Shown here piece after piece: positions 361 through 48,004 of a stretch of DNA of 64,000 nucleotides (position 1 is its first letter; every line of letters starts with the position of its first letter). The notes under the pieces were generated by a model that was not told where the DNA came from, made no database searches, and saw only the letters and a list, made by a program, of their open reading frames with translations. The DNA is from Escherichia coli (GTDB lineage: Bacteria > Pseudomonadota > Gammaproteobacteria > Enterobacterales > Enterobacteriaceae). Location of the stretch: the NCBI RefSeq assembly GCF_017348835.2, contig NZ_CP071375.1, one strand, 5' to 3'. Both the position numbers and the translations under genes were made by a program.

Positions 361-402
361 AATTTGCACGGCAAATTTGAAGAGGTTTTAACTACATGTT
401 AT

Positions 403-478
403 GGGGCTATAGCTCAGCTGGGAGAGCGCCTGCTTTGCACGCAGGAGGTCTGCGGTTCGATCCCGCATAGCTCCACCA
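403..478 (+). tRNA. alaT: tRNA-Ala (TGC anticodon), rrn spacer tRNA
   Basis: GGGGCTATAGCTCAGCTGGGAGAGCGCCTGCTTTGCACGCAGGAGGTCTGCGGTTCGATCCCGCATAGCTCCACCA. Confidence 0.95.
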
Positions 479-652
479 TCTCTGTAGTGATTAAATAAAA
501 AATACTTCAGAGTGTACCTGCAAAGGTTCACTGCGAAGTTTTGCTCTTTAAAAATCTGGATCAAGCTGAAAATTGAAACACTGAACAATGAAAGTTGTTC
601 GTGAGTCTCTCAAATTTTCGCAACTCTGAAGTGAAACATCTTCGGGTTGTGA

Positions 653-3555
<2,903 letters not shown>

Positions 3556-3648
3556 ACAACGCCGAAGGTGTTTTGGCGGATTGAGAGAAGATTTTCAGCC
3601 TGATACAGATTAAATCAGAACGCAGAAGCGGTCTGATAAAACAGAATT

Positions 3649-3768
3649 TGCCTGGCGGCCGTAGCGCGGTGGTCCCACCTGACCCCATGCCGAACTCAGA
3701 AGTGAAACGCCGTAGCGCCGATGGTAGTGTGGGGTCTCCCCATGCGAGAGTAGGGAACTGCCAGGCAT
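3649..3768 (+). rRNA. rrf: 5S rRNA
   Basis: TGCCTGGCGGCCGTAGCGCGGTGGTCCCACCTGACCCCATGCC...GGGAACTGCCAGGCAT, 120 nt. Confidence 0.95.
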
Positions 3769-3780
3769 CAAATTAAGCGA

Positions 3781-3807
3781 AAGGCCATCCGTCAGGATGG
3801 CCTTTTT
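3781..3807 (+). terminator. rrn operon intrinsic terminator
   Basis: AAGGCCATCCGTCAGGATGGCCTTTTT: GC-rich hairpin followed by a T-run, directly after the 5S gene. Confidence 0.85.
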
Positions 3808-3869
3808 GCATTGGCGCAGAAAAAAATGCCGGATGCGACGCTGGCGCGTCTGCTCCAGCCTACTCTTGC

Positions 3870-4397
3870 TTATCCGTCCTGATTTTGCATCCACTCCACC
3901 ACAAAATCAGCCAGCCCCTCAACATCATTAATATCCAGTAATGCGACATCAAGATTAAGCGGCACATCACTGGCTACAGCAATAACATGCCTGTCTATCA
4001 CTAATTCTTCAGGTCGATGTCCGGCTCCATCGCGAAACAGCACAATCTTTGCGATCTCTTCATGCTTAAACTCTTCGACCAGAATCAAATCCAGCTTTGA
4101 GGTATCCATTCGACTTGCGAGAAAATGTAGATCCAGCTCTTCTTCGTCTGGTGTTTCCGTCATCAAGGCCCATCGTTGCTGGCTGGCAACGATGGTTTGT
4201 GCCGCGCCAGCCTTGCGCAGCTCATAGCTATCTTTGCCTGGCTTATCAACATCCATATCATGGTGCGTATGCTTAATCAGCCCTGGACGGATCCCTCTGG
4301 CGCATAATGCCGGGATCAGTTTTTTCAAAAGCGTAGTTTTTCCGGTACCACTCCACGCGGCAAAGGCGAGTAACGGTATCATCGTTTTTCCTGCCAT
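3870..4397 (-). CDS. mobB: Molybdopterin-guanine dinucleotide biosynthesis adapter protein MobB
   Basis: 175-aa ORF with a P-loop (GTGKTT); overlaps mobA as in the mobAB operon. Confidence 0.9.
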
Positions 4398-4963
4398 CGG
4401 GCAAGCTCCTCTGGCGTATTCACGTTAACAAATGCATCTTTATGATCGCTGAAATCAACCGCATGACCGCCAGCCAGACGCATAAATGCCATTACCCGGC
4501 GTTCTCCTGCTTGCAGATATTCCAGTAATAAAGGCTCAATAGCGCGGTTTACCAGAGCAATAGTCGGGTGATCGCGTTCACCGTCATGGACCCACACGAC
4601 AGGCGCATCTTTGCGCTGATGATTAAGCCTGGCTGCTAAATCAGGGGGAATGTAAGGCGTATCGCACGGGCAAAACAAAAACCACTCACCAGCTTCCTGC
4701 TGCATTACTGAAAGCATTCCTGCCAGAGGGCCTGGGTAATCCGCCAGTGAATCTTCAATCACTTTCAGACCGCCTGCCTGATAGATTTCCTGATGACGAT
4801 TAGCATTAACCACGACGTGAGAGAGCTGCGTCATAAGCGCGTCAGCGACATGTTGCCACAGCGGTTTGCCATTTAAGTCCAGCAATCCTTTATCTACGCC
4901 GCCCATTCGTCTGGCTTTACCGCCTGCCAGCACAACGCCTGTTATCGTCGTCATCAGATTCAC
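4379..4963 (-). CDS. mobA: Molybdenum cofactor guanylyltransferase MobA
   Basis: 194-aa ORF beginning [22 protein letters not shown] (nucleotidyltransferase G-loop). Confidence 0.9.
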
Positions 4964-5032
4964 CGATATCGCCTCTTTTATTGTGGGATTGACCCTGCTA
5001 ACGTGTCTGTCTCAAGAGTAAGGAGCATCACT

Positions 5033-5302
5033 ATGAAATGTAAACGTCTGAATGAAGTTATTGAACTCCTCCAGCCAGCCTGGCAAAAAGAGCCAGACCT
5101 TAACCTGTTGCAATTTTTGCAGAAACTGGCGAAAGAGTCAGGTTTTGACGGCGAACTGGCGGATTTGACGGATGACATTCTGATCTATCACCTGAAAATG
5201 CGTGATTCCGCGAAAGATGCGGTGATCCCGGGTTTGCAGAAAGATTATGAAGAAGACTTCAAAACGGCGCTGTTACGCGCTCGTGGCGTAATTAAAGAGT
5301 AA
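5033..5302 (+). CDS. yihD: Small conserved protein YihD (DUF1040)
   Basis: Track ORF 5003..5302; start placed at the internal ATG (MKCKRLNEV...) preceded by the RBS AGGAGCA, giving 89 aa. Confidence 0.85.
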
Positions 5303-5378
5303 AAGCTTGTAAGCGGCGCCACCAAAATCATCGTGAAATGATATCCTTCATCATTCGTAATGTTTTCCGGATGATGGG

Positions 5379-6365
5379 ATGAACAACAGCGCTTTTACTT
5401 TCCAGACACTACACCCGGATACCATCATGGACGCTCTGTTTGAACAAGGGATCCGGGTGGATTCCGGTCTTACCCCGCTTAACAGCTATGAAAACCGTGT
5501 CTATCAATTTCAGGACGAAGATCGTCGACGTTTTGTCGTCAAATTTTATCGTCCTGAACGTTGGACAGCCGATCAAATCCTCGAAGAACATCAATTTGCG
5601 TTGCAGCTGGTAAATGATGAAGTTCCGGTTGCAGCACCTGTGGCTTTTAACGGTCAGACTTTATTGAATCATCAGGGATTTTATTTCGCTGTTTTTCCCA
5701 GCGTCGGTGGTCGCCAGTTCGAAGCTGATAATATCGATCAGATGGAAGCGGTTGGGCGTTATTTAGGGCGTATGCACCAGACGGGGCGCAAACAGCTTTT
5801 TATCCATCGCCCGACCATCGGTCTGAATGAATATCTCATTGAGCCACGCAAGCTGTTTGAGGACGCTACACTGATACCTTCCGGGTTGAAAGCGGCATTC
5901 CTGAAAGCGACAGATGAGCTGATCGCCGCCGTTACAGCACACTGGCGGGAAGACTTCACCGTTCTGCGGCTACATGGAGACTGCCACGCCGGGAATATTC
6001 TCTGGCGCGATGGTCCAATGTTTGTTGATCTGGATGATGCACGTAATGGTCCAGCTATTCAGGATTTGTGGATGTTGCTCAATGGCGATAAAGCCGAGCA
6101 GCGGATGCAACTGGAAACTATTATTGAAGCTTATGAAGAATTTAGCGAGTTCGACACCGCTGAAATCGGACTGATTGAACCTTTACGCGCCATGCGTTTG
6201 GTTTATTATCTTGCCTGGCTAATGCGGCGTTGGGCTGATCCCGCGTTCCCGAAAAATTTCCCGTGGTTAACCGGGGAAGATTACTGGCTACGACAGACGG
6301 CGACTTTTATAGAACAGGCAAAAGTTCTACAAGAACCCCCTTTGCAATTAACACCTATGTATTAA
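5379..6365 (+). CDS. srkA: Stress-response Ser/Thr protein kinase SrkA (RdoA/YihE)
   Basis: 328-aa ORF with the kinase-like motifs HGDCHAGNILW and DLDD. Confidence 0.9.
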   Translation: MNNSAFTFQTLHPDTIMDALFEQGIRVDSGLTPLNSYENRVYQFQDEDRRRFVVKFYRPERWTADQILEEHQFALQLVNDEVPVAAPVAFNGQTLLNHQGFYFAVFPSVGGRQFEADNIDQMEAVGRYLGRMHQTGRKQLFIHRPTIGLNEYLIEPRKLFEDATLIPSGLKAAFLKATDELIAAVTAHWREDFTVLRLHGDCHAGNILWRDGPMFVDLDDARNGPAIQDLWMLLNGDKAEQRMQLETIIEAYEEFSEFDTAEIGLIEPLRAMRLVYYLAWLMRRWADPAFPKNFPWLTGEDYWLRQTATFIEQAKVLQEPPLQLTPMY

Positions 6366-6381
6366 TCGGAGAGAGTAGATC

Positions 6382-7008
6382 ATGAAAAAGATTTGGCTGG
6401 CGCTGGCTGGTTTAGTTTTAGCGTTTAGCGCATCGGCGGCGCAGTATGAAGATGGTAAACAGTACACTACCCTGGAAAAACCGGTAGCTGGCGCGCCGCA
6501 AGTGCTGGAGTTTTTCTCTTTCTTCTGCCCGCACTGCTATCAGTTTGAAGAAGTTCTGCATATTTCTGATAATGTGAAGAAAAAACTGCCGGAAGGCGTG
6601 AAGATGACTAAATACCACGTCAACTTCATGGGTGGTGACCTGGGCAAAGATCTGACTCAGGCATGGGCTGTGGCGATGGCGCTGGGCGTGGAAGACAAAG
6701 TGACTGTTCCGCTGTTTGAAGGCGTACAGAAAACCCAGACCATTCGTTCTGCTTCTGATATCCGCGATGTATTTATCAACGCAGGTATTAAAGGTGAAGA
6801 GTACGACGCGGCGTGGAACAGCTTCGTGGTGAAATCTCTGGTCGCTCAGCAGGAAAAAGCTGCAGCTGACGTGCAATTGCGTGGTGTTCCGGCGATGTTT
6901 GTTAACGGTAAATATCAGCTGAATCCGCAGGGTATGGATACCAGCAATATGGATGTTTTTGTTCAGCAGTATGCTGATACAGTGAAATATCTGTCCGAGA
7001 AAAAATAA
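6382..7008 (+). CDS. dsbA: Periplasmic thiol:disulfide oxidoreductase DsbA
   Basis: 208 aa with a signal peptide and the CPHC active site ([13 protein letters not shown]). The 208-aa antisense ORF 6418..7044 is spurious. Confidence 0.95.
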
Positions 7009-7162
7009 TTCAATGTAAATTACATAAAGCCCGTGAATATTCACGGGCTTTTTTTATTATTTAATAAATATAAATACATTCTGATAATGCATCCTGCCGC
7101 TGGACATTATTTCAGCATAAGTGGATATTCAAAGTTTTGCTGTTTTATCAGGGAATATTTAT

Positions 7163-8593
7163 ATGATACGTAAGTCAGCTACAGGTGTTATTGTTGCGTT
7201 AGCCGTAATCTGGGGTGGTGGCACATGGTACACAGGTACGCAAATTCAGCCTGGTGTCGAAAAATTTATTAAAGATTTTAACGATGCTAAAAAGAAAGGT
7301 GAACATGCCTACGATATGACGTTAAGTTATCAAAATTTTGACAAAGGCTTTTTTAATTCCCGTTTTCAAATGCAAATGACATTCGATAACGGTGCACCTG
7401 ATCTCAATATCAAGCCAGGCCAGAAAGTTGTATTTGATGTGGATGTTGAGCACGGTCCGTTGCCCATCACAATGTTAATGCATGGTAATGTCATCCCAGC
7501 ACTGGCAGCGGCAAAAGTGAACTTAGTGAATAATGAACTGACACAACCGCTATTTATCGCCGCGAAAAATAAATCGCCCGTGGAAGCGACATTGCGATTC
7601 GCGTTTGGTGGCTCATTCTCCACGACATTAGATGTTGCCCCTGCAGAGTATGGAAAATTCTCTTTTGGTGAAGGCCAGTTTACTTTTAATGGTGATGGTA
7701 GTTCATTGTCTAACCTGGATATTGAAGGCAAAGTCGAAGATATTGTTCTGCAATTTTCACCAATGAACAAAGTAACGGCGAAAAGTTTTACCATTGATTC
7801 TCTGGCGCGATTAGAAGAAAAGAAATTTCCGGTTGGTGAAAGCGAGTCGAAATTTAATCAGATTAACATTATCAATCACGGGGAAGACGTTGCCCAAATC
7901 GATGCTTTCGTTGCAAAAACCAGGCTGGAACGCGTTAAAGACAAAGATTATATCAATGTCAATCTGACCTACGAACTTGATAAGTTAACAAAAGGGAATC
8001 AGCAACTCGGTAGTGGTGAGTGGTCATTGATTGCTGAATCTATTGATCCCTCAGCAGTGCGCCAATTTATCATCCAGTATAACATTGCGATGCAGAAGCA
8101 GCTTGCTGCACACCCTGAGTTAGCAAACGATGAAGTTGCTCTGCAAGAAGTGAATGCTGCATTGTTCAAAGAGTATTTACCGTTATTACAACAAAGTGAG
8201 CCGACCATTAAACAACCGGTAAGATGGAAGAACGCACTCGGCGAACTAAATGCCAATCTGGATATCAGTATTGCCGACCCAGCCAAATCTTCATCATCCA
8301 CAAACAAAGATATCAAATCGCTCAATTTTGATGTGAAGTTACCGCTTAATGTCGTCACAGAAACCGCAAAACAGCTTAATTTATCTGAAGGAATGGATGC
8401 GGAAAAAGCGCAAAAGCAGGCTGATAAACAAATCAGCGGGATGATGACATTAGGTCAGATGTTTCAGTTAATCACGATTGACAACAATACCGCCTCGCTG
8501 CAGCTGCGTTATACACCGGGTAAAGTTGTTTTTAACGGACAGGAGATGAGCGAAGAAGAATTTATGTCTCGTGCCGGACGTTTTGTTCATTAA
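7163..8593 (+). CDS. yihF: DUF945-family protein YihF
   Basis: Track ORF 7121..8593; start placed at the internal ATG (MIRKSATGVIVALAV...) with an N-terminal hydrophobic segment. Confidence 0.8.
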   Translation: MIRKSATGVIVALAVIWGGGTWYTGTQIQPGVEKFIKDFNDAKKKGEHAYDMTLSYQNFDKGFFNSRFQMQMTFDNGAPDLNIKPGQKVVFDVDVEHGPLPITMLMHGNVIPALAAAKVNLVNNELTQPLFIAAKNKSPVEATLRFAFGGSFSTTLDVAPAEYGKFSFGEGQFTFNGDGSSLSNLDIEGKVEDIVLQFSPMNKVTAKSFTIDSLARLEEKKFPVGESESKFNQINIINHGEDVAQIDAFVAKTRLERVKDKDYINVNLTYELDKLTKGNQQLGSGEWSLIAESIDPSAVRQFIIQYNIAMQKQLAAHPELANDEVALQEVNAALFKEYLPLLQQSEPTIKQPVRWKNALGELNANLDISIADPAKSSSSTNKDIKSLNFDVKLPLNVVTETAKQLNLSEGMDAEKAQKQADKQISGMMTLGQMFQLITIDNNTASLQLRYTPGKVVFNGQEMSEEEFMSRAGRFVH

Positions 8594-8633
8594 AATACTC
8601 ACTCGCCTCTGCTCATTCAGAGGCGAGTAAAAC

Positions 8634-9566
8634 TTACTTATTCTGACGCTGTGATGACATGAGAGACGTCAGAAGCCGGTCTTTTTCCTGCCACAATGAG
8701 TTCAGCCATTGCTGAAAATGGCGCTTAAAGCTTTTGTCATTGATGTAGTCGCCATGTAACTCATCGGCAATAGGCTGTAAATCCACATGTACGACAATCC
8801 GCGTCAGTTTACCGCTTAACATATCGAAGAACGGCTGACGGTTATTGTCCGGATAACACAACGTAACATTAAGCAGTTTATCGAATTGTTTACCCAGTAC
8901 ATTTAGCGCCATCGCAATGCCTGCCGCCTTTGGTGGCAACAAGTTTTGGAAAGTGGAGTGGGTTTGCTGATGTTTTTCTTGCGTGAAACGGGAGCCTTCA
9001 ACGAAATTGACAATGGTGGTGGGATGCAGGCGAAACTTTTCACAAGAACGCCGAGTGGTTTCAACATCTTTACCACGTCGCTCCGGATGACGTAATAAAT
9101 AAGCGCGGGAATAACGCTTCATAAACGGCATATCCAGCGCCCAGCACGCCAGGCCAAGAAATGGCACCCAGGCCAGCTGTTGCTTGAGGAAATATTTATT
9201 CATCGGAATGTGCTTACGAAACAGCACGCACAGTACGACAATATCTGCCCAACTACGGTGGTTACAAATAAGCAGATACCAGTTCTTCTTACTTAACCCT
9301 TCCAGCCCGTGAACTTCCCATTGCAGGTGTGGGTTCAGATGCAGTAATACCGCCAGACCTTCACACCAGCAATACATCATAAAATCACAAAAACGCGAAA
9401 CCTTTCGCCAAATGACTGGCACAGGTAGCAATAGTTTTACAATCCCGGCAATGATGATCGGGACGGAACAAAAAATAGTGACCAAAATGGTCAATACGAT
9501 ACTCAGCAAAAGGGTTATCGCAGCGAGTATTCTCGTCATAATGAATTTATTCAAAAGGTTAGCCAT
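8634..9566 (-). CDS. yihG: Putative acyltransferase YihG (PlsC-like)
   Basis: Track ORF 8634..9590; start placed at the internal Met (MANLLNKF...), giving 310 aa; contains the HRSWAD acyltransferase motif. Confidence 0.8.
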
Positions 9567-9929
9567 AGACAGTGCGCTAAAGAAGCGCAAGGCGCAGATT
9601 TTAGCAGAAAACGACCCAAATAACGGATGATCCTTAAGGAGAAAAATAATTCATATCTATCCACATTAGAAAAAATCCCATTATCTCAATTATTAGGGAT
9701 GGCTTTATTTTTAACTGCATGAAAAACAAAGACAAACATCATGCTGTAAAAAGCATGATAATAAATTAAAAGCGATGTAAATAATTTATGCACAAAGTTA
9801 TCCACATGACGATTTGCGAGCGATCCAGAAGATCTACAAAAGATTTTCACGAAAAGCGGTGAAAAACTCATGTTTTTATCCTGTCTGTGGCATCCTTTAC
9901 CCATAATCTGATAAACAGGCACGGACATT

Positions 9930-12716
9930 ATGGTTCAGATCCCCCAAAATCCACTTATCCTTGTAGATGGTTCATCTTATCTTTATCGCGCATATCACGC
10001 GTTTCCCCCGCTGACTAACAGCGCAGGCGAGCCGACCGGTGCGATGTATGGTGTCCTCAACATGCTGCGCAGTCTGATCATGCAATATAAACCGACGCAT
10101 GCAGCGGTGGTCTTTGACGCCAAGGGAAAAACCTTTCGTGATGAACTGTTTGAACATTACAAATCACATCGCCCGCCAATGCCGGACGATCTGCGAGCAC
10201 AAATCGAACCCTTGCACGCGATGGTTAAAGCGATGGGACTGCCGCTGCTGGCGGTTTCTGGCGTAGAAGCGGACGACGTTATCGGTACTCTGGCGCGCGA
10301 AGCCGAAAAAGCCGGGCGTCCGGTGCTGATCAGCACTGGCGATAAAGATATGGCGCAGCTGGTGACGCCAAATATTACGCTTATCAATACCATGACGAAT
10401 ACCATCCTCGGACCGGAAGAGGTGGTGAATAAGTACGGCGTGCCGCCAGAACTGATCATCGATTTCCTGGCGCTGATGGGTGACTCCTCTGATAACATTC
10501 CTGGCGTACCGGGCGTCGGTGAAAAAACCGCGCAGGCATTGCTGCAAGGTCTTGGCGGGCTGGATACGCTGTATGCCGAGCCAGAAAAAATTGCTGGGTT
10601 GAGCTTCCGTGGCGCGAAAACAATGGCAGCGAAGCTCGAGCAAAACAAAGAAGTTGCTTATCTCTCATACCAGCTGGCGACGATTAAAACCGACGTTGAA
10701 CTGGAGCTGACCTGTGAACAACTGGAAGTGCAGCAACCGGCAGCGGAAGAGTTGTTGGGGCTGTTCAAAAAGTATGAGTTCAAACGCTGGACTGCTGATG
10801 TCGAAGCGGGCAAATGGTTACAGGCCAAAGGGGCAAAACCCGCCGCGAAGCCACAGGAAACCAGTGTTGCAGACGAAGCACCAGAAGTGACGGCAACGGT
10901 GATTTCTTATGGCAACTACGTCACCATCCTTGATGAAGAAACACTGAAAGCGTGGATTGCGAAGCTGGAAAAAGCGCCGGTATTTGCATTTGATACCGAA
11001 ACCGACAGCCTTGATAACATCTCTGCTAACCTGGTCGGGCTTTCTTTTGCTATCGAGCCAGGCGTAGCGGCATATATTCCGGTTGCTCATGATTATCTTG
11101 ATGCGCCCGATCAAATCTCTCGCGAGCGTGCACTCGAGTTGCTAAAACCGCTGCTGGAAGATGAAAAGGCGCTGAAGGTCGGGCAAAACCTGAAATACGA
11201 TCGCGGTATTCTGGCGAATTACGGCATTGAGCTGCGTGGGATTGCGTTTGATACCATGCTGGAGTCCTACATTCTCAATAGCGTTGCTGGCCGTCACGAT
11301 ATGGACAGCCTCGCAGAACGTTGGTTGAAGCACAAAACCATCACTTTTGAAGAGATTGCGGGTAAAGGCAAAAATCAACTGACCTTTAACCAGATTGCCC
11401 TCGAAGAGGCCGGACGTTACGCCGCCGAAGATGCAGATGTCACCTTGCAGTTGCATCTGAAAATGTGGCCGGATCTGCAAAAACACAAAGGGCCGTTGAA
11501 CGTCTTCGAGAATATCGAAATGCCGCTGGTGCCGGTGCTTTCACGCATTGAACGTAACGGTGTGAAGATCGATCCGAAAGTGCTGCACAATCATTCTGAA
11601 GAGCTTACCTTGCGTCTGGCTGAGCTGGAAAAGAAAGCGCATGAAATTGCAGGTGAGGAATTTAACCTTTCTTCCACCAAGCAGTTACAAACCATTCTGT
11701 TTGAAAAACAGGGCATTAAACCGCTGAAGAAAACGCCGGGTGGCGCGCCGTCAACGTCGGAAGAGGTACTGGAAGAACTGGCGCTGGACTATCCGTTGCC
11801 AAAAGTGATTCTGGAGTATCGTGGTCTGGCGAAGCTGAAATCGACCTACACCGACAAGCTGCCGCTGATGATCAACCCGAAAACCGGGCGTGTGCATACC
11901 TCTTATCACCAGGCAGTAACTGCAACGGGACGTTTATCGTCAACCGATCCTAACCTGCAAAACATTCCGGTACGTAACGAAGAAGGTCGCCGTATCCGCC
12001 AGGCGTTTATTGCGCCAGAGGATTATGTGATTGTCTCAGCGGACTACTCGCAGATTGAACTGCGCATTATGGCGCATCTCTCGCGTGACAAAGGCTTGCT
12101 GACCGCATTCGCGGAAGGAAAAGATATCCACCGGGCAACGGCGGCAGAAGTGTTTGGTTTGCCACTGGAAACCGTCACCAGCGAGCAACGCCGTAGCGCG
12201 AAAGCGATCAACTTTGGTCTGATTTATGGCATGAGTGCTTTCGGTCTGGCGCGGCAATTGAACATTCCACGTAAAGAAGCGCAGAAGTACATGGACCTTT
12301 ACTTCGAACGCTACCCTGGCGTGCTGGAGTATATGGAACGCACCCGTGCTCAGGCGAAAGAGCAGGGCTACGTTGAAACGCTGGACGGACGCCGTCTGTA
12401 TCTGCCGGATATCAAATCCAGCAATGGTGCTCGTCGTGCAGCGGCTGAACGTGCAGCCATTAACGCGCCAATGCAGGGAACCGCCGCCGACATTATCAAA
12501 CGGGCGATGATTGCCGTTGATGCGTGGTTACAGGCTGAGCAACCGCGTGTACGTATGATCATGCAGGTACACGATGAACTGGTATTTGAAGTCCATAAAG
12601 ATGATGTCGATGCCGTCGCGAAGCAGATTCATCAACTGATGGAAAACTGTACCCGTCTGGATGTGCCGTTGCTGGTGGAAGTGGGGAGTGGCGAAAACTG
12701 GGATCAGGCGCACTAA
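9930..12716 (+). CDS. polA: DNA polymerase I
   Basis: 928-aa ORF with 5'-3' exonuclease, 3'-5' exonuclease and polymerase regions (...[14 protein letters not shown]..., ...QVHDELVFE...). Confidence 0.97.
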
Positions 12717-37593: not shown

Positions 37594-38490
37594 ATGGCAG
37601 CAATCGCGTTTATCGGTTTAGGACAAATGGGTTCGCCAATGGCGAGCAATTTATTGCAGCAAGGGCACCAACTTCGCGTCTTTGATGTGAATGCCGAGGC
37701 TGTGCGGCATCTGGTAGACAAAGGCGCGACTCCCGCCGCCAACCCGGCGCAGGCCGCTAAAGATGCCGAATTTATCATTACCATGTTGCCGAATGGCGAT
37801 CTGGTGCGCAGCGTGTTGTTCGGTGAAAACGGCGTTTGCGAAAGCTTATCTACCGATGCGCTGGTCATTGATATGTCGACCATCCATCCGCTGCAAACCG
37901 ATAAATTGATTGCCGATATGCAAGCCAAAGGCTTCAGCATGATGGATGTTCCGGTAGGCCGTACTTCTGCAAATGCCATTACCGGTACTCTGTTACTGCT
38001 GGCTGGCGGCACCGCTGAACAAGTTGAACGTGCCACGCCGATCCTGATGGCGATGGGCAGTGAGTTGATCAACGCTGGCGGTCCGGGCATGGGGATCCGC
38101 GTTAAGCTCATCAACAACTATATGAGCATCGCGCTCAATGCACTTTCGGCAGAAGCCGCCGTTTTGTGCGAAGCCCTGAATCTTCCCTTCGATGTTGCCG
38201 TCAAAGTGATGAGCGGTACCGCCGCCGGTAAAGGCCACTTCACCACTTCCTGGCCAAACAAAGTCCTCAGCGGAGATCTTTCTCCCGCCTTCATGATCGA
38301 TCTTGCCCATAAGGATCTTGGCATCGCCCTTGATGTCGCCAACCAGCTGCATGTGCCAATGCCGCTGGGGGCCGCCTCACGGGAGGTTTATAGCCAGGCG
38401 CGCGCAGCGGGTCGCGGTCGCCAGGACTGGTCCGCCATTCTGGAACAGGTCCGTGTCAGTGCCGGGATGACTGCCAAAGTAAAAATGTAA
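37594..38490 (+). CDS. yihU: 3-sulfolactaldehyde reductase YihU (NAD-dependent, HIBADH family)
   Basis: 298 aa with an N-terminal Rossmann motif ([13 protein letters not shown]). Confidence 0.9.
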
Positions 38491-38513
38491 CGACTGGATA
38501 AAGGAATAAATGA

Positions 38514-39392
38514 ATGAATAAGTACACCATCAACGACATTACGCGCGCCTCGGGCGGTTTTGCCATGCTGGCGGTCGATCAGCGCGAAGCCATGCGCATG
38601 ATGTTTGCCGCGGCTGGGGCACCCGCTCCGGTAGCCGATAGCGTTTTAACTGATTTCAAAGTTAACGCGGCGAAGACCCTCTCGCCTTATGCCTCGGCGA
38701 TTCTGGTAGATCAACAATTCTGTTACCGCCAGGTGGTTGAGCAAAACGCGATTGCCAAAAGTTGCGCCATGATTGTCGCCGCCGATGAGTTCATTCCTGG
38801 CAACGGTATTCCGGTAGATAGCGTGGTCATTGACCGCAAAATCAATCCGCTACAGATCAAACAAGACGGTGGCAAAGCCTTAAAACTGCTGGTGCTGTGG
38901 CGTAGTGATGAAGATGCGCAGCAACGCCTGGATATGGTGAAAGAGTTTAACGAACTGTGCCACTCACACGGCCTGGTAAGCATTATTGAGCCAGTCGTCC
39001 GCCCACCACGTCGTGGCGATAAATTCGATCGCGAACAAGCGATCATCGATGCCGCCAAAGAGCTGGGCGACAGTGGCGCTGACCTCTACAAAGTTGAAAT
39101 GCCGCTTTACGGTAAAGGTCCGCAACAAGAGCTTCTCAGTGCTTCACAACGTCTGAATAACCATATCAATATGCCGTGGGTGATCCTCTCTTCCGGTGTC
39201 GACGAAAAACTGTTCCCGCGTGCCGTACGCGTGGCAATGACAGCGGGTGCATCGGGCTTCCTGGCTGGTCGTGCCGTCTGGGCATCGGTCGTCGGTTTAC
39301 CAGACAACGAGCTGATGCTGCGTGACGTTTGCGCACCAAAATTACAACAACTTGGCGATATCGTCGACGAAATGATGGCTAAACGCCGTTAA
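38514..39392 (+). CDS. yihT: 6-deoxy-6-sulfofructose-1-phosphate aldolase YihT
   Basis: 292-aa ORF in the conserved position between yihU and yihS. Confidence 0.9.
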
Positions 39393-39407
39393 GATGGGGA
39401 TACAAAA

Positions 39408-40649
39408 ATGAAATGGTTTAACACTTTAAGTCACAACCGTTGGCTGGAACAGGAAACCGATCGCATCTTTGATTTTGGTAAAAATTCCGTAGTACCGACT
39501 GGATTTGGCTGGTTAGGCAATAAAGGGCAAATCAAAGAAGAGATGGGCACCCATCTGTGGATCACAGCTCGTATGTTGCACGTTTATTCCGTTGCTGCGG
39601 CGATGGGTCGACCTGGCGCTTACTCGTTGGTTGATCACGGTATTAAAGCCATGAACGGCGCACTGCGCGATAAAAAATATGGCGGCTGGTATGCCTGTGT
39701 GAATGACGAGGGCGTGGTGGATGCCTCCAAACAGGGCTATCAACATTTCTTTGCTCTGCTGGGTGCTGCCAGCGCCGTCACTACCGGTCATCCGGAAGCG
39801 CGCAAGCTGCTCGATTACACCATTGAAATTATCGAGAAATACTTCTGGAGCGAAGAAGAGCAGATGTGCCTGGAGTCCTGGGACGAAGCCTTCAGCAAAA
39901 CCGAAGAGTACCGCGGCGGCAATGCCAATATGCACGCAGTGGAAGCTTTCTTGATTGTGTATGACGTAACGCATGACAAAAAATGGCTGGATCGCGCGAT
40001 TCGCGTGGCTTCTGTGATTATCCACGACGTCGCCAGAAATAATCATTATCGCGTTAACGAACACTTCGATACCCAGTGGAATCCGCTGCCGGATTACAAC
40101 AAAGATAACCCGGCGCACCGCTTCCGCGCGTTCGGAGGTACACCAGGCCACTGGATCGAATGGGGCCGTTTAATGCTGCACATCCACGCGGCCCTGGAAG
40201 CCCGTTGCGAACAACCGCCAGCATGGCTGCTAGAAGATGCCAAAGGTCTGTTTAACGCCACCGTGCGTGATGCCTGGGCACCCGATGGTGCGGACGGGAT
40301 TGTTTATACCGTTGACTGGGAAGGAAAACCGGTGGTCCGCGAACGTGTGCGTTGGCCTATCGTCGAAGCGATGGGTACGGCCTACGCGCTCTACACCGTC
40401 ACCGGCGATCGCCAGTATGAAACCTGGTATCAGACATGGTGGGACTACTGCATTAAGTACCTGATGGACTATGAAAATGGTTCCTGGTGGCAGGAGCTGG
40501 ATGCGGACAATAAAGTCACCACGAAAGTCTGGGACGGCAAACAGGATATTTATCACCTGCTGCATTGCCTGGTGATCCCGCGTATCCCGTTAGCGCCAGG
40601 CCTGGCTCCGGCAGTTGCGGCGGGTCTGCTGGATATTAACGCGAAATAA
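39408..40649 (+). CDS. yihS: Sulfoquinovose isomerase YihS (AGE superfamily)
   Basis: 413-aa ORF; the antisense ORF 39513..40151 is spurious. Confidence 0.9.
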
Positions 40650-40715: not shown

Positions 40716-41618
40716 ATGCAAATCACCAACATGCATTGCAGTGGACAGACCGTTTCACTTGCCGCGGGGGATTATCACGCGACCATTGTGACCGTCGGTG
40801 CAGGTCTGGCTGAATTAACCTTTCAGGGCTGCCATTTAGTTATTCCACATAAACCCGAAGAGATGCCGCTGGCACATCTGGGCAAAGTCCTTATTCCGTG
40901 GCCGAACCGGATCGCCAACGGCTGTTATCGCTATCAGGGGCAGGAATATCAGTTACCCATTAATGAACATGGTTCAAAAGCCGCTGTTCATGGGCTGCTC
41001 GCCTGGCGTGACTGGCAAATCAGCGAATTAACCGCCACCAGCGTTACCCTGACAGCTTTTCTGCCGCCCAGTTACGGCTATCCGTTTATGCTGGCTTCGC
41101 AGGTTGTTTATTCGCTCAATGCACGCACGGGTCTTTCCGTTGAGATCGCAAGTCAGAATATTGGTACTGTGACCGCACCCTATGGTGTGGGTATTCATCC
41201 TTATTTAACCTGCAACTTAACGCCTGTTGATGACTATGTATTCCAGCTTCCGGCAAATCAGGTTTATGCCGTCGATGAGCACGCGAATCCGACAACGCTT
41301 CACCACGTTGATGAGCTGGATTTAAATTTCACGCAGGCGAAAAAAATAGCCGCGACAAAAATCGACCACACCTTTAAAACCGCTAATGATCTGTGGGAAA
41401 TAACCATTACCCATCCACAGCAGGCGCTTTCGGTAAGCCTTTGTTCCGATCAACCCTGGGTACAAATTTATAGCGGTGAAAAATTACAGCGTCAGGGACT
41501 GGCAGTTGAACCTATGAGTTGCCCACCTAACGCCTTTAATTCAGGTCTCGACTTATTATTACTGGAACCAGGGAAAACGCACCGCCTGTTTTTTAATATT
41601 TACGGGCAGCACAATTAA
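40716..41618 (+). CDS. yihR: Aldose-1-epimerase-family protein YihR (sulfoquinovose mutarotase)
   Basis: 300-aa ORF in the conserved position. Confidence 0.88.
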   Translation: MQITNMHCSGQTVSLAAGDYHATIVTVGAGLAELTFQGCHLVIPHKPEEMPLAHLGKVLIPWPNRIANGCYRYQGQEYQLPINEHGSKAAVHGLLAWRDWQISELTATSVTLTAFLPPSYGYPFMLASQVVYSLNARTGLSVEIASQNIGTVTAPYGVGIHPYLTCNLTPVDDYVFQLPANQVYAVDEHANPTTLHHVDELDLNFTQAKKIAATKIDHTFKTANDLWEITITHPQQALSVSLCSDQPWVQIYSGEKLQRQGLAVEPMSCPPNAFNSGLDLLLLEPGKTHRLFFNIYGQHN

Positions 41619-41678
41619 TTTTATTAAGAAAAGAACGAGATCATTGTTTAGAGTTGTATTTACACAACAGGAAATATT

Positions 41679-42554
41679 ATGGACTTTTTTACGTTATTTT
41701 CACCGGATGGGGTCATGCTGGAAACAAACGTGGTATGTATCGTTATCGCGTTAATGTTTCTTTATACCTTTGTGGGGATATGCGCGGGATTTGGCGGTGG
41801 TTTAACCACTATGCCGCTCGTCACGTTAATGCTCCCCGTAAAAATGGCAACACCACTCTCGGTAATTGTCGGCACCGCGACCGCCTTGTACGCCACCTGG
41901 CTGTCACGTAAAGAAACGGATTGGCGATCGGCAATGGTACTGATTATTTTCTCGTTTCTGGGAATACCCGTCGGTTTATATGCGCTGTCGTATTTACCCG
42001 ACCATTTTATGAAAGTGGGCTTAGGCGGATTCCTTATCCTGTACTCCTTTTACAGTATGTTTATTCCACGCCTGCCGATTTATGACCGTAGCTGGATCGC
42101 CGCACCTATCGGTGCAGTAGCAGGCGCATTAGGCGCAGCTTTCTCAACCAACGGACCACCGATGGTTATCTACGGTATGCTGCGTAACTTAGGCCCGGCG
42201 GCATTTCGTGGCACTCTGAACGCTTTCTTCACCGCAAACAACATCGCGGTGATCGGCGGGCTGGCGACCAGCGGAATTTTGACTGTTTCGATCTTTAAAC
42301 TGGTGCTGTTTTGTATTCCCACCATGATCCTCGGTTCACTGGTTGGACAATATGTGCATAAACGTATTTCAGTCAAAGTGTTCCGTGTGATGGTCTTTTT
42401 ATTGCTGATTGCCTCCGGTTCCATGTTGATAAAAGGCGCGCTGGGAATTCCCGCCGCTGCCGCACTTCTACCTCCGTTTACCTTGTTAGTTATACTGCAA
42501 CTGGTATTTGGTAAAAAAGTGGCGGCAATCCGTCAGGCTGAAGCAAGTAAATAA
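41679..42554 (+). CDS. TauE/SafE-family membrane transporter (putative sulfite/organosulfonate exporter)
   Basis: 291-aa polytopic membrane protein with the two glycine-rich repeats typical of the family (AGFGGGLTTMP and GALGAAFSTNGPPM); RBS AGGAAAT upstream. I recall no gene at this position in K-12. Confidence 0.75.
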   Translation: MDFFTLFSPDGVMLETNVVCIVIALMFLYTFVGICAGFGGGLTTMPLVTLMLPVKMATPLSVIVGTATALYATWLSRKETDWRSAMVLIIFSFLGIPVGLYALSYLPDHFMKVGLGGFLILYSFYSMFIPRLPIYDRSWIAAPIGAVAGALGAAFSTNGPPMVIYGMLRNLGPAAFRGTLNAFFTANNIAVIGGLATSGILTVSIFKLVLFCIPTMILGSLVGQYVHKRISVKVFRVMVFLLLIASGSMLIKGALGIPAAAALLPPFTLLVILQLVFGKKVAAIRQAEASK

Positions 42555-42661
42555 TCACTTATGCGGGTTTAAATTTATATCCGCACACATTCTTTAATTA
42601 ATTAAACCTGTAATAACAGGATGGCATGAAATATTAGCTTTATACTCTATGGAGATTAGTT

Positions 42662-44698
42662 ATGGATACGCCACGCCCACAATTACCAGATTTTCAGTTT
42701 CATCAGAATAACGACAGTTTTACCCTACATTTTCAACAGCGTCTTATTTTAACCCATAGCAAAGATAATCCTTGTTTATGGATTGGTTCAGGTATTGCGG
42801 ATATCGATATGTTCCGCGGCAATTTCAGCATTAAAGATAAACTACAGGAGAAAATTGCGCTTACCGACGCCATCGTCAGCCAGTCACCGGATGGTTGGTT
42901 AATCCATTTCAGCCGTGGTTCTGACATTAGCGCCACGCTGAATATCTCTGCCGACGATCAGGGCCGTTTATTGCTGGAACTACAAAACGACAACCTTAAC
43001 CACAACCGTATCTGGCTGCGCCTTGCCGCTCAACCAGAGGACCATATCTACGGCTGCGGCGAACAGTTTTCCTACTTCGATCTGCGTGGCAAACCGTTCC
43101 CGCTATGGACCAGTGAACAAGGCGTTGGTCGCAACAAACAAACCTATGTCACCTGGCAGGCCGACTGCAAAGAAAATGCGGGCGGCGACTATTACTGGAC
43201 TTTCTTCCCGCAGCCTACGTTTGTCAGCACGCAGAAGTATTACTGCCATGTTGATAACAGTTGCTATATGAACTTCGACTTTAGTGCCCCGGAATACCAT
43301 GAACTGGCGCTGTGGGAAGACAAAGCAACGCTGCGTTTTGAATGTGCTGATACATACATCTCCCTGCTGGAAAAATTAACCGCGCTGCTGGGACGCCAGC
43401 CAGAACTGCCCGACTGGATTTATGACGGAGTAACGCTCGGCATTCAGGGCGGCACTGAGGTGTGCCAGAAGAAACTGGATACCATGCGTAACGCGGGCGT
43501 GAAGGTCAACGGCATCTGGGCGCAGGACTGGTCCGGGATCCGTATGACCTCTTTTGGCAAACGCGTAATGTGGAACTGGAAGTGGAACAGCGAAAACTAC
43601 CCGCAACTGGATTCGCGTATCAAGCAGTGGAACAAAGAGGGCGTGCAGTTCCTTGCCTATATCAACCCGTATGTTGCCAGTGATAAAGATCTCTGCGAAG
43701 AGGCGGCAAAGCGCGGTTATCTGGCAAAAGATGTCGCCGGTGGCGACTATCTGGTGGAGTTTGGCGAGTTCTACGGCGGCGTTGTCGATCTCACCAATCC
43801 GGAAGCCTACGCCTGGTTCAAGGAAGTTATCAAAAAGAACATGATTGAACTCGGCTGCGGCGGCTGGATGGCTGACTTCGGCGAGTATCTGCCCACCGAC
43901 ACGTACCTGCATAACGGCATCAGCGCGGAAATTATGCATAACGCCTGGCCCGCGCTGTGGGCGAAATGTAACTACGAAGCCCTTGAAGAAACGGGCAAGC
44001 TCGGCGAGATCCTCTTCTTTATGCGCGCCGGTTCTACCGGTAGCCAGAAATACTCCACCATGATGTGGGCGGGAGACCAGAACGTCGACTGGAGTCTGGA
44101 CGATGGCCTTGCGTCCGTTGTCCCGGCGGCGCTGTCGCTGGCAATGACCGGACATGGTCTGCATCACAGCGACATTGGCGGTTATACCACCCTGTTTGAG
44201 ATGAAGCGCAGCAAAGAGCTGCTGTTGCGCTGGTGCGATTTCAGCGCCTTCACGCCGATGATGCGCACCCACGAAGGTAACCGTCCGGGCGACAACTGGC
44301 AGTTTGACGGCGACGCGGAAACTATCGCCCATTTCGCCCGTATGACCACCGTCTTCACCACCCTGAAACCTTACCTGAAAGAGGCCGTCGCGCTGAATGC
44401 GAAGTCCGGCCTGCCGGTTATGCGCCCGCTGTTCCTGCATTACGAAGACGACGCGCAGACCTATTCCCTGAAATATCAGTACCTGTTAGGTCGCGACATT
44501 CTGGTTGCTCCGGTACACGAAGAAGGTCGCAGCGACTGGACGCTCTATCTGCCAGAGGATAACTGGGTCCACGCCTGGACCGGAGAAACCTTCCACGGTG
44601 GAGAAATAACTGTTGAAGCGCCCATCGGCAAGCCGCCGGTCTTTTATCGCGCCGACAGCGAATGGGCTGCACTGTTCGCCTCGTTAAAAAGCATCTAA
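42662..44698 (+). CDS. yihQ: Sulfoquinovosidase YihQ (GH31 family)
   Basis: 678-aa ORF; the antisense ORF 43376..44440 is spurious. Confidence 0.92.
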   Translation: MDTPRPQLPDFQFHQNNDSFTLHFQQRLILTHSKDNPCLWIGSGIADIDMFRGNFSIKDKLQEKIALTDAIVSQSPDGWLIHFSRGSDISATLNISADDQGRLLLELQNDNLNHNRIWLRLAAQPEDHIYGCGEQFSYFDLRGKPFPLWTSEQGVGRNKQTYVTWQADCKENAGGDYYWTFFPQPTFVSTQKYYCHVDNSCYMNFDFSAPEYHELALWEDKATLRFECADTYISLLEKLTALLGRQPELPDWIYDGVTLGIQGGTEVCQKKLDTMRNAGVKVNGIWAQDWSGIRMTSFGKRVMWNWKWNSENYPQLDSRIKQWNKEGVQFLAYINPYVASDKDLCEEAAKRGYLAKDVAGGDYLVEFGEFYGGVVDLTNPEAYAWFKEVIKKNMIELGCGGWMADFGEYLPTDTYLHNGISAEIMHNAWPALWAKCNYEALEETGKLGEILFFMRAGSTGSQKYSTMMWAGDQNVDWSLDDGLASVVPAALSLAMTGHGLHHSDIGGYTTLFEMKRSKELLLRWCDFSAFTPMMRTHEGNRPGDNWQFDGDAETIAHFARMTTVFTTLKPYLKEAVALNAKSGLPVMRPLFLHYEDDAQTYSLKYQYLLGRDILVAPVHEEGRSDWTLYLPEDNWVHAWTGETFHGGEITVEAPIGKPPVFYRADSEWAALFASLKSI

Positions 44699-44743: not shown

Positions 44744-46129
44744 ATGAGTCACATCACAACGGAAGATCCAGCAACTTTACGCTTGCCCTTTAAAGAGAAA
44801 CTCTCTTACGGTATTGGCGACCTGGCCTCTAACATTTTGCTGGATATCGGCACGCTTTATCTTTTGAAATTTTATACCGACGTTCTGGGGCTGCCTGGCA
44901 CCTATGGCGGCATTATCTTTTTGATCTCGAAATTCTTTACTGCGTTTACGGATATGGGTACCGGCATCATGCTGGATTCCCGACGCAAGATCGGTCCAAA
45001 AGGTAAGTTCCGTCCTTTTATTCTGTATGCGTCATTCCCGGTCACCTTACTGGCAATCGCCAACTTTATCGGCACGCCGTTTGACGTCACCGGTAAAACG
45101 GTGATGGCCACCATCCTGTTTATGCTCTACGGACTGTTTTTCAGCATGATGAACTGCCCCTATGGCGCAATGGTTCCCGCCATTACCAAAAACCCCAACG
45201 AACGCGCATCGCTGGCGGCATGGCGTCAGGGTGGTGCTACATTGGGCCTGCTGCTGTGTACAGTGGGATTCGTGCCGGTGATGAACCTTATCGAAGGTAA
45301 TCCGCAACTGAGCTACGTTTTCGCCGCCACGCTATTTTCACTGTTCGGCCTGCTGTTTATGTGGATCTGCTACTCGGGCGTGAAAGAGCGTTATGTCGAA
45401 ACCCAACCTGCTAATCAGGCGCAAAAGCCAGGCTTGCTGCAATCTTTCCGCGCAATTGCCGGTAACCGCCCACTGTTCATTCTGTGTATTGCCAACCTCT
45501 GCACCTTAGGGGCGTTTAACGTCAAGCTCGCCATTCAGGTCTATTACACCCAGTACGTGCTTAACGATCCCATCCTGTTGTCGTATATGGGATTTTTTAG
45601 CATGGGCTGTATTTTCATCGGCGTGTTCCTGATGCCTGGCGCAGTTAGACGTTTTGGTAAGAAGAAGGTCTATATCGGCGGCCTGCTGATTTGGGTGTTG
45701 GGCGATCTGCTCAACTATTTCTTCGGCGGCGGTTCGGTCAGCTTCGTGGCGTTCTCCTGCCTGGCATTCTTCGGCTCAGCGTTTGTTAACAGCCTGAACT
45801 GGGCGCTGGTTTCCGACACCGTCGAGTACGGCGAGTGGCGTACCGGCGTTCGTTCGGAAGGTACGGTCTACACCGGTTTCACCTTCTTTCGCAAAGTGTC
45901 TCAGGCGCTGGCTGGTTTCTTCCCCGGCTGGATGCTGACGCAAATCGGTTATGTGCCGAACGTGGCGCAGGCTGACCACACCATTGAAGGGTTGCGCCAG
46001 CTGATCTTCATCTACCCAAGCGCACTGGCGGTAGTCACCATTGTGGCGATGGGCTGCTTCTACAGCCTGAACGAGAAGATGTATGTCCGCATTGTTGAAG
46101 AAATAGAAGCCCGTAAACGCACGGCGTAA
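44744..46129 (+). CDS. yihP: GPH-family sugar:cation symporter YihP
   Basis: Track ORF 44711..46129; start placed at MSHITTEDPATLRL with RBS GGGAGA, giving about 461 aa; paralogous to yihO. Confidence 0.88.
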   Translation: MSHITTEDPATLRLPFKEKLSYGIGDLASNILLDIGTLYLLKFYTDVLGLPGTYGGIIFLISKFFTAFTDMGTGIMLDSRRKIGPKGKFRPFILYASFPVTLLAIANFIGTPFDVTGKTVMATILFMLYGLFFSMMNCPYGAMVPAITKNPNERASLAAWRQGGATLGLLLCTVGFVPVMNLIEGNPQLSYVFAATLFSLFGLLFMWICYSGVKERYVETQPANQAQKPGLLQSFRAIAGNRPLFILCIANLCTLGAFNVKLAIQVYYTQYVLNDPILLSYMGFFSMGCIFIGVFLMPGAVRRFGKKKVYIGGLLIWVLGDLLNYFFGGGSVSFVAFSCLAFFGSAFVNSLNWALVSDTVEYGEWRTGVRSEGTVYTGFTFFRKVSQALAGFFPGWMLTQIGYVPNVAQADHTIEGLRQLIFIYPSALAVVTIVAMGCFYSLNEKMYVRIVEEIEARKRTA

Positions 46130-46171: not shown

Positions 46172-46694
46172 ATGTCTGACCATAATCCACTGACATTAAA
46201 ACTGAATCTGCGGGAAAAAATCGCCTATGGTATGGGCGACGTCGGTTCGAATTTAATGCTTAGCATCGGTACTCTGTATCTCCTCAAATTTTATACCGAT
46301 GAATTAGGGATGCCAGCTTACTATGGCGGGATTATCTTTCTGGTGGCGAAGTTTTTTACCGCGTTTACCGATATGCTCACCGGATTTTTACTCGACTCGC
46401 GGAAAAATATTGGGCCTAAAGGCAAATTTCGTCCCTTTATTTTATATGCAGCGGTTCCGGCGGCGTTAATTGCAACGCTCCAGTTTATCGCCACCACCTT
46501 TAGTTTGCCGGTTAAAACGACGATTGCCACCGCGCTGTTTATGATGTTTGGACTTTCATACAGTCTGATGAACTGCTCGTATGGTGCGATGATCCCGGCA
46601 ATTACCAAAAACCCGAATGAGCGCGCGCAGCTCGCGGCTTACCGCCAGGGTGGTGCAACCATAGGGCTATTGATTTGTACCGTGGCGTTTATTC
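46172..46694 (+). pseudogene. yihO: yihO, N-terminal fragment truncated by the IS
   Basis: MSDHNPLTLKLNLREKIAYGMGD... runs into the IS left end at 46695; the track ORF's last residues (NRPGNPGD) are read from IS sequence. Confidence 0.85.
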
Positions 46695-46748
46695 TGAACC
46701 GCCCCGGAAATCCTGGAGACTAAACTCCCTGAGAAAGAGGTAAACAGG

Positions 46749-47075
46749 ATGACTAAAAATACTCGTTTTTCCCCCGAAGTCCGTCAGCGGGCGATTCGTA
46801 TGGTTCTGGAAAGTCAGGATGAATATGACTCACAGTGGGCGGCAATTTGTTCCATTGCCCCAAAGATTGGCTGTACGCCGGAGACTCTGCGTGTCTGGGT
46901 TCGCCAGCATGAGCGGGATACCGGGAGTGGTGATGGTGGACTCACCACCGCTGAACGTCAGCGTCTGAAAGAGCTGGAACGTGAAAATCGTGAACTGCGC
47001 CGCAGTAACGATATCCTTCGCCAGGCTTCCGCTTATTTTGCGAAGGCGGAGTTCGACCGCCTCTGGAAAAAATAA
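46749..47075 (+). CDS. IS3-family transposase OrfA, copy 2
   Basis: Protein identical to the copy-1 OrfA. Confidence 0.9.
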
Positions 47076-47962
47076 TGCCACTGCTGGATAAGCTGCGTGA
47101 GCAGTACGGGGGCGGACCGGTATGCAGCGAACTGCATATTGCCCCGTCAACGTATTACCATTGTCAGCAACAGCGACATCATCCGGATAAACGCAGTGCC
47201 CGTGCGCAGCACGATGACTGGCTGAAGAAAGAGATACAGCGCGTATACGATGAAAATCACCAGGTATACGGTGTGCGTAAAGTCTGGCGTCAGTTGTTAC
47301 GGGAAGGTATCAGAGTGGCCAGATGCACTGTGGCACGTCTCATGGCAGTTATGGGACTTGCCGGTGTTCTCCGGGGTAAAAAGGTCCGCACTACCGTCAG
47401 CCGGAAAGCCGTTGCCGCATGCGACCGCGTAAACCGTCAGTTCGTGGCAGAACGTCCAGACCAGTTGTGGGTGGCTGATTTTACCTGGGTAAGCACATGG
47501 CAGGGCTTCGTTTATGTGGCGTTCATCATTGATGTGTTCGCCGGATACATCGTGGGATGGCAGGTCTCATCATCCATGGAAACAACATTCGTGCTGGATG
47601 CACTGGAGCAGGCGTTGTGGGCCCGTCGGCCGTCCGGCACAATCCATCACAGTGATAAAGGTTCTCAGTATGTATCGCTGGCCTACACGCAGCGGCTTAA
47701 GGAAGCCGGATTACTGGCATCAACAGGGAGTACTGGCGACTCGTATGACAACGCGATGGCTGAGAGCATCAATGGTCTTTACAAAGCGGAGGTAATACAC
47801 CGTAAGAGCTGGAAAAACCGGACAGAAGTGGAACTGGCCACACTAACGTGGGTGGACTGGTATAACAATCGACGATTGCTGGAAAGGCTGGGCCATATTC
47901 CTCCGGCAGAAGCAGAAAAAGCTTATTATGCTTCCATCGGAAATAATGATCTGGCAGCCTGA
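47075..47962 (+). CDS. IS3-family transposase OrfB (DDE), copy 2
   Basis: Protein identical to the copy-1 OrfB; -1 frame relative to orfA. Confidence 0.9.
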   Translation: MPLLDKLREQYGGGPVCSELHIAPSTYYHCQQQRHHPDKRSARAQHDDWLKKEIQRVYDENHQVYGVRKVWRQLLREGIRVARCTVARLMAVMGLAGVLRGKKVRTTVSRKAVAACDRVNRQFVAERPDQLWVADFTWVSTWQGFVYVAFIIDVFAGYIVGWQVSSSMETTFVLDALEQALWARRPSGTIHHSDKGSQYVSLAYTQRLKEAGLLASTGSTGDSYDNAMAESINGLYKAEVIHRKSWKNRTEVELATLTWVDWYNNRRLLERLGHIPPAEAEKAYYASIGNNDLAA

Positions 47963-48004
47963 GTTCACAGATAAAACACTCTCCAGGAAACCCGGGGCGG
48001 TTCA

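Follow-up and report, generated by a model that had tools for sequence, protein, structure and literature searches.

Sulfoquinovose (SQ) is a very abundant organosulfur compound, and its breakdown in the gut feeds 2,3-dihydroxypropane-1-sulfonate (DHPS) to sulfite-respiring, H2S-producing bacteria. We know of no demonstration of the DHPS export step; in Escherichia coli K-12, YihP has been named for it by elimination. Characterised members of the MFS_2 family are cation-coupled sugar importers. The TSUP family is named after a 4-toluenesulfonate uptake system, and both importers and exporters have been proposed among its members. The founders of the corresponding Pfam family PF01925 (TC 2.A.102), TauE of Cupriavidus necator H16 and SafE of Neptuniibacter, have reportedly been assigned to C2-sulfonate metabolism, in connection with sulfite or sulfoacetate, and the former is said to have been described as a sulfite exporter by Weinitschke in 2007. 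Proteins of the TauE type have also been predicted to export SL/DHPS or isethionate, namely SftE of the sulfo-TAL pathway and SqwE of the sulfo-TK pathway.

The sulfo-EMP pathway proceeds without desulfonation, and DHPS is excreted (PMC6278857 and the accessible text of PMC12608037). YihP is described only as 'most likely' the DHPS exporter of K-12, and a yihP mutant is not among the K-12 knockouts that failed to grow on SQ (PMC6278857). Knockout of yihO abolishes growth of K-12 on SQ (PMC6278857). A 2025 survey distinguishes, in its accessible text, two forms of the yih cassette only, a long ten-gene form (ompL-yihOPQRSTUVW) and a short four-gene form (yihTUVW), and this text makes no mention of an eleven-gene form containing tauE (PMC12608037).

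The tauE gene and its neighbours

The window, i.e. the stretch of 64,000 nucleotides of E. coli DNA analysed here, carries a yih cluster in the order csqR-yihV / yihU-yihT-yihS-yihR-tauE-yihQ-yihP-yihO', the last gene being split. The genes for the regulator CsqR (YihW) and the sulfofructose kinase YihV are located on the minus strand (35711..37432), divergent from yihU. On the plus strand, yihU (SLA reductase, which makes DHPS), yihT (aldolase) and yihS (isomerase) occupy 37594..40649, followed by yihR (SQ mutarotase, 40716..41618, assigned from the RefSeq annotation of identical or near-identical loci), tauE (41679..42554), yihQ (sulfoquinovosidase, 42662..44698) and yihP (MFS_2-family transporter, presumed DHPS exporter in the literature; 44744..46129). 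As given in the preliminary description, tauE is a co-oriented ORF between yihR and yihQ with its own ribosome-binding site. It starts with ATG and encodes a TauE/SafE (TSUP family) protein of 291 amino acids, a putative C3-sulfonate (DHPS) exporter in a sulfo-EMP cluster; a Shine-Dalgarno-like AGGA, read from the sequence, is found at 41669..41672 on the plus strand, 6 nt 5' of the start codon. The spacers to yihR and yihQ are 60 and 107 bp long, respectively, and all three genes are on the same strand. The GC content of tauE is 48.6%, compared to 48.7% for yihR and 49.9% for the window. The RefSeq entry for the identical protein (WP_000345437.1; O157:H7, strain PE164) is named 'sulfite exporter TauE/SafE family protein', and in the pig strain PE164 the whole yihR-yihQ region is 100% identical to that of the window.

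Downstream of yihP the cluster is disrupted by an inversion, which was traced by searching the window with the O157 locus and the IS element (blastn). The 5' fragment of the SQ importer gene yihO (46172..46694, plus strand; the first approx. 175 codons) is cut by an IS3-family element (46701..48004, plus strand; orfA 46749-47075, orfB 47075-47962), which forms the right end of the inversion. A second, identical copy in inverted orientation was located by blastn of the IS element at 28057..29360 (minus strand). To its left lies the 3' part of yihO (about 27174-28069, minus strand), followed leftwards by ompL, yihN, yihM and yihL. The two identical inverted copies bracket an inversion of approx. 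17 kb, which carries the whole yihV...yihP segment including tauE, and the right junction now adjoins yiiF/fdhE. Strain PE164 has the same inverted arrangement. Since the inversion splits yihO and K-12 needs yihO for growth on SQ, this strain probably has no functional SQ pathway, though tauE itself is intact.

Protein family and predicted structure

The earlier assignment to the TauE/SafE family was borne out by a Pfam match to TauE (PF01925, E=8.2e-35; residues 23-248, model positions 2-235 of 237), with which the RefSeq name agrees. An NCBIfam search with the TauE protein gave no match, nor did searches of the PDB sequences with the single TauE sequence and with a profile; no TSUP structure was found in the PDB. 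An AlphaFold2 model calculated from a 146-sequence alignment (pLDDT 96, pTM 0.92) is that of an all-helical membrane protein; this alignment was used instead of a 14-sequence orthologue alignment, with which the run reached a pLDDT of 41 and was discarded. The first block of the model comprises helices 16-36, 40-49, 54-75, 82-105 and 108-128, and is mirrored by a second one with helices 138-155, 159-168, 173-198, 203-227 and 232-255. An extra C-terminal helix is modelled at 259-290. The next full-length relatives outside the orthologous group described below are 26-38% identical and mostly approx. 240 amino acids long. They align with the query only up to around residue 250, and helix 259-290, the ninth helix, is therefore specific to the group.

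In the 146-sequence alignment, G37 is invariant, while F38, G39, P46, G145, G149, G159, P160 and P161 are invariant or nearly so. The motifs GFGGG (37-41) and NGPP (158-161) are located at two equivalent helix breaks of the model (36/40 and 155/159). Model and alignment together describe a polytopic protein with an internal repeat (about 4+4 helices) and conserved Gly-rich motifs, as is typical of PF01925, and the Pfam domain and the Gly/Pro motifs are common to TauE of C. necator H16 and SafE of Neptuniibacter. Of the duplicated Gly-rich signature claimed before, the conserved Gly and Pro residues at two equivalent helix breaks therefore stand, whereas an internal duplication was not detectable by sequence alone when the two halves were compared with each other (BLAST E=0.25, hhalign E=0.064; neither significant).

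In the structure of BacA, each repeat begins with a re-entrant pair of helices. If BacA-like re-entrant pairs are assumed for TauE, the Lys/Arg-rich loops (76-83, 129-137, 169-177, 228-236 and the C-terminal tail) come to lie on one side of the membrane and the acidic N-terminus on the other, which would argue for an N-out/C-in topology. BacA/UppP, the undecaprenyl-pyrophosphate phosphatase (PDB 5OON), is 8% identical to TauE and is an enzyme; no evidence for a function shared with TauE was found.

Orthologues in sulfo-EMP and sulfo-ED-like clusters

Relatives were sought among 1.84 billion representative proteins. The orthologous group of TauE corresponds to one 50%-identity cluster, the representative of which (P0088) is 80% identical to the query. 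Identity within the group is 75-98%, with 65% for Craterilacuibacter, the most distant member; throughout Enterobacterales, orthologues are found at 80-87% identity. The two nearest non-orthologous relatives (P0127 and P0131) are encoded in genomic neighbourhoods that have no relation to sulfonates and gave no functional lead.

Species loci were gathered with group-specific peptide patterns (n=28; the locus of Salmonella enterica is one more beyond these). In all 28 of them tauE is located inside a sulfoglycolysis cluster, 17 of the yih/sulfo-EMP and 11 of a sulfo-ED-like type, which substantiates the functional coherence with sulfoglycolysis that had been proposed. Among the yih clusters, tauE lies between yihR and yihQ in six loci (the Escherichia/Salmonella/Citrobacter group and relatives) and between yihQ and yihP or yihO in the other 11 (Kluyvera, Lelliottia, C. 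freundii, Pantoea, Atlantibacter and others). The sulfo-ED-like clusters with tauE, each spanning about 1-10900 of its locus, stem from Mixta, Leminorella, Edwardsiella, Buttiauxella, two Enterobacter, C. amalonaticus, Vibrio owensii, Aeromonas cavernicola and Craterilacuibacter. Sulfo-ED genes have already been noted in the literature for Hafnia, Leminorella, Serratia, Vibrio and Plesiomonas. A neighbour-joining tree of the TauE proteins places the two yih arrangements in separate clades and the sulfo-ED versions at a basal position, which suggests that tauE moved between pathway modules.

A typical sulfo-ED-like cluster encodes a LacI-type regulator, an SSS symporter, an IlvD/Edd-type dehydratase, an HpaI-type aldolase, a mutarotase, a putative lactonase, a YihU-like reductase, an SDR sugar dehydrogenase and TauE. 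The putative lactonase (291 amino acids) had no NCBIfam match. Both pathway types start from the sulfosugar substrate and encode TauE together with a YihU-type reductase and, in most clusters, a mutarotase, and YihU or a YihU-like reductase is encoded in all tauE clusters (the 28 loci and S. enterica). A YihU-like reductase instead of an SLA dehydrogenase was observed in the sulfo-ED-like loci L010, L015, L017, L018, L020, L022, L024, L025, L028, L029 and L030. Neither an SLA dehydrogenase nor a desulfonating or sulfite-forming enzyme was found in the E. coli, Salmonella or sulfo-ED-like clusters inspected. Because the reductase takes the place of an SLA dehydrogenase, DHPS and not sulfolactate is the implied product of the sulfo-ED-like clusters.

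The candidate importers vary, with YihO and YihP in most yih clusters and an SSS symporter in most sulfo-ED clusters; the sulfo-ED cluster of Aeromonas (L025) encodes two YihP-like proteins. According to Pfam searches with the Salmonella orthologues, YihO and YihP both carry an MFS_2 domain. YihP and TauE are encoded together in 15 of the 17 yih clusters, and two clusters keep TauE without YihP. The latter two, from Lelliottia nimipressuralis (L014) and an Enterobacter MAG (L027; 2000-12500 in both), have a YihO-like permease only and would represent a minimal transport set of one importer and one TauE. In Enterobacter sp. ENT03 (L017, 1-20873), a sulfo-ED-like cluster ending in tauE adjoins a yih cluster without yihR and tauE; here, a single mutarotase and a single TauE appear to serve both pathways.

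Compared to the systems described before, TauE resembles SftE (Bacillus, Enterococcus, Clostridium) and SqwE in belonging to the same Pfam family and being encoded inside a sulfoglycolysis cluster, and for all of them export of the sulfonate end product is a prediction. The gene is also co-oriented with the surrounding cluster in E. coli, Salmonella and the 28 species loci, as expected for an exporter of the TauE type. The pathways (sulfo-EMP and sulfo-ED-like) and the phyla are different, and TauE forms an orthologous group of its own, at most 38% identical to anything outside and with an extra C-terminal helix. At best, the group may therefore be regarded as a subfamily separate from SftE and SqwE, which are compared here by description only.

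Ancestry of tauE and its loss in E. coli

In S. enterica, tauE is found at the same chromosomal locus (dtd-yihY-yihX-csqR-yihV, followed by yihUTSR-tauE-yihQPO-ompL). A species-level scan revealed the order yihR-tauE-yihQ also in E. whittamii, S. diarizonae, Citrobacter sp. wls619, Mangrovibacter, Superficieibacter and an enterobacterial MAG. Pairwise dN/dS values of tauE range from 0.03 to 0.13, E. coli allele pairs included. The dS values are 0.09-0.10 between divergent E. coli alleles and 0.15-0.22 compared to E. whittamii, and are saturated compared to Salmonella. By these sequence measures, the conservation of tauE across many genera is far beyond chance, and the dN/dS and graded dS pattern is that expected from vertical descent. 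Since tauE is found at this position in E. whittamii, Salmonella and a Citrobacter as well, and the dS between Escherichia and Salmonella has reached saturation, the gene is, from the comparison of these genomes, ancestral, and the K-12-type arrangement is a derived deletion. The preliminary description had seen in tauE an addition in this lineage, which is contradicted by the presence of the same gene at the same locus in these relatives and in 24% of the complete E. coli genomes.

A recent horizontal acquisition of tauE as an island gene was also considered, and was ruled out by the synteny in the sister species, the saturated dS, the unremarkable GC content and a tree that follows arrangement and rough taxonomy.

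Within E. coli, tauE was found in 1295 of 5426 complete genomes, O157:H7 among them. It is always chromosomal and single-copy, except for one genome with two matching places, and intact (at least 80% query coverage) in all but eight of the carriers (1287/1295). The K-12-type yihR-yihQ spacer of 198 bp is present in 2634 of the 5426 genomes, in 2358 of them with at least 99% identity. The yihR-yihQ region as a whole was found in 4004 complete genomes; the remaining ones presumably carry the short cassette of PMC12608037. The absence of tauE from K-12, stated previously, was confirmed: K-12-type genomes have the 198-bp spacer only, and tauE is thus variable within E. coli, as its earlier classification as accessory implies, but by loss and not by gain. 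Only the flanks of the K-12-type spacer align with the window (approx. 29 bp of the left and approx. 65 bp of the right flank). No recognisable gene remnant was found; the central approx. 105 bp gave an unconvincing score of 21 against tauE, compared to a mean of 13.2 and a maximum of 22 for shuffled sequences.

The yihR gene of the tauE-minus strain HNSQ2209 is 98.4% identical to that of the tauE-plus strain O157, and yihR of the tauE-minus strain ST69 is 97.3% identical to that of the tauE-plus strain AST262. The C-terminus of YihR reads GQRK in four of four tauE-minus E. coli strains, GQHN in four of four tauE-plus strains and GQRN in E. whittamii. Judged from these sequences, the E. coli haplotypes around the presence/absence site are mosaic, yet the GQRK C-terminus is common to all tauE-minus strains examined. 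Together with the K-12-type spacer, at least 99% identical in most of its carriers, this points to a single old deletion allele that would have been spread by recombination. The yihR gene was observed to be much more divergent than its neighbours, with 67% nucleotide identity to Salmonella (yihQ: 80%) and 87% to E. whittamii (neighbours: 92-93%).

Elements in the spacers flanking tauE

A consensus scan of both tauE-flanking spacers, including the yihR-tauE spacer at 41619..41678, revealed no sigma-70-like promoter and no intrinsic-terminator-like site on the plus strand. The flanking genes yihR and yihQ are strongly induced by SQ in K-12 according to the accessible text of PMC12608037. Both observations make it likely that tauE is co-induced with its neighbours by SQ. 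The structure of the operon around tauE is less settled because of a stem-loop with a 7-bp stem (UGCGGGU...AUCCGCA) and no U-run, which is located just 3' of the tauE stop codon (42562..42585, plus strand). It is kept in the E. coli alleles, with a perfect stem in IMT16316. At this position, Salmonella and Citrobacter carry another hairpin, which is GC-rich and stronger. The fold of the spacer is not exceptional (z=-0.95). The stem-loop may act as a partial terminator or as an RNA stabiliser and may mark a point of processing or attenuation after tauE.

Upstream of yihQ, a perfect 14-bp palindrome, CCTGTAATAACAGG, is located at 42607..42620. It is found exactly in the window, AST262, E. whittamii and the K-12-type sequence, with one substitution in IMT16316 (CCTGTAACAACAGG) and with a 6-bp insertion (AATAAC) in the ST69-type spacer; it was looked for in Salmonella and is absent there. 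The palindrome is a possible operator or regulator binding site.

Proposed role in DHPS export and alternative roles

From its genomic context, TauE, as a permease of the inner membrane, is probably, though by no means certainly, the ancestral dedicated efflux route for DHPS made by YihU. Export of DHPS is favoured because the YihU-type reductase and TauE are constant across both pathways while the candidate importers vary. We infer for TauE the substrate, the direction and energetics of transport, the co-transcription and the membrane topology as follows. The tauE gene would be transcribed along with the SQ-inducible yihUTSR(-tauE)(-yihQPO) genes. The sulfosugar would be brought in by the MFS_2 (GPH-type) permeases YihO/YihP, or by the SSS symporter in sulfo-ED clusters. 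TauE would insert with the N-terminus outside and the C-terminus inside, its helix breaks at GFGGG 37-41 and NGPP 158-161 would meet mid-membrane to form an anion site, and the DHPS anion would exit through it down the membrane potential. As K-12 still excretes DHPS, tauE is not indispensable for this step. A search of the literature returned no transport, expression or mutant data on this TauE or any orthologue.

YihP, encoded in the same cluster and with the same proposed task in K-12, belongs to an unrelated fold and family (MFS_2). The frequent co-occurrence of YihP and TauE fits different roles of the two proteins and does not say which of them exports. A bolder interpretation, to which we attach somewhat less than even confidence, is that TauE and not YihP would be the native enterobacterial DHPS exporter, with YihP as a second importer (e.g. 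for SQ glycosides), K-12 as a natural deletion mutant of the export step, and the eleven-gene cluster as the ancestral form and a third variant of the yih cassette.

TauE might also export or relieve another anion, such as sulfolactaldehyde, sulfolactate or sulfosugar overflow, or serve general anion homeostasis during sulfoglycolysis. The genomic context would be the same in this case, K-12 exports DHPS without TauE, and TauE homologues have been tied in the literature to several different sulfonates. However, the constant partner in both pathway types is the YihU-type reductase, the product of which is DHPS, and an SLA dehydrogenase is missing from the clusters examined, so that such a role is considered unlikely.

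The origin of the TSUP name in a 4-toluenesulfonate uptake system would be in keeping with the reverse direction, i.e. with an uptake permease for SQ, SQ-glycosides or another sulfonate beside YihO/YihP. TauE/TSUP transporters in sulfo-EMP and sulfo-ED clusters have indeed been called importers of SQ and its glycosides (PMC8940949). Nevertheless, each cluster already encodes one or two permeases of the cation-symporter type (MFS_2 or SSS), which are variable while TauE is constant, and K-12 grows on SQ without TauE but requires yihO (PMC6278857). It would also be less plausible for a small permease that has no evident coupling partner to take up an anion against the membrane potential, and uptake by TauE is regarded as quite improbable.

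The literal reading as a sulfite exporter, suggested by the Pfam/RefSeq family name and by the description of C. necator TauE, was rejected as very improbable because the cluster has no sulfite-forming step. Sulfo-EMP does not desulfonate and its end product DHPS is excreted, no sulfo-lyase or sulfite-forming enzyme is encoded in the E. coli, Salmonella or inspected sulfo-ED-like clusters, and no TauE from outside the group shares more than 38% identity with the protein. In contrast to C. necator TauE and Neptuniibacter SafE, no sulfite is formed by the pathway of the E. coli cluster, and the likely substrate is DHPS. That tauE is a dispensable relic on its way out and functionless in present E. 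coli, as might be concluded from its deletion in 2634 of the 5426 complete genomes, for which no phenotype is known, and from the already broken pathway in the window, is hardly credible in view of the low dN/dS, which holds for the E. coli alleles as well, and of a gene that is full-length in nearly all carriers and conserved across genera.

Significance for enterobacterial sulfoglycolysis

The novelty of TauE as a candidate DHPS exporter is modest, since TauE-type exporters have already been predicted in other sulfoglycolysis clusters and tauE is annotated in RefSeq. The presumptive assignment of YihP as DHPS exporter rests on a strain without tauE, and the view of the ten-gene K-12 cluster as the complete cassette is corrected by the tauE-containing form, which would be the ancestral one. 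With its dedicated TauE-type permease in Salmonella, O157:H7 and a quarter of E. coli, this cluster offers a concrete and easily tested candidate for the export step, and strains that naturally possess or lack tauE are available for comparison.
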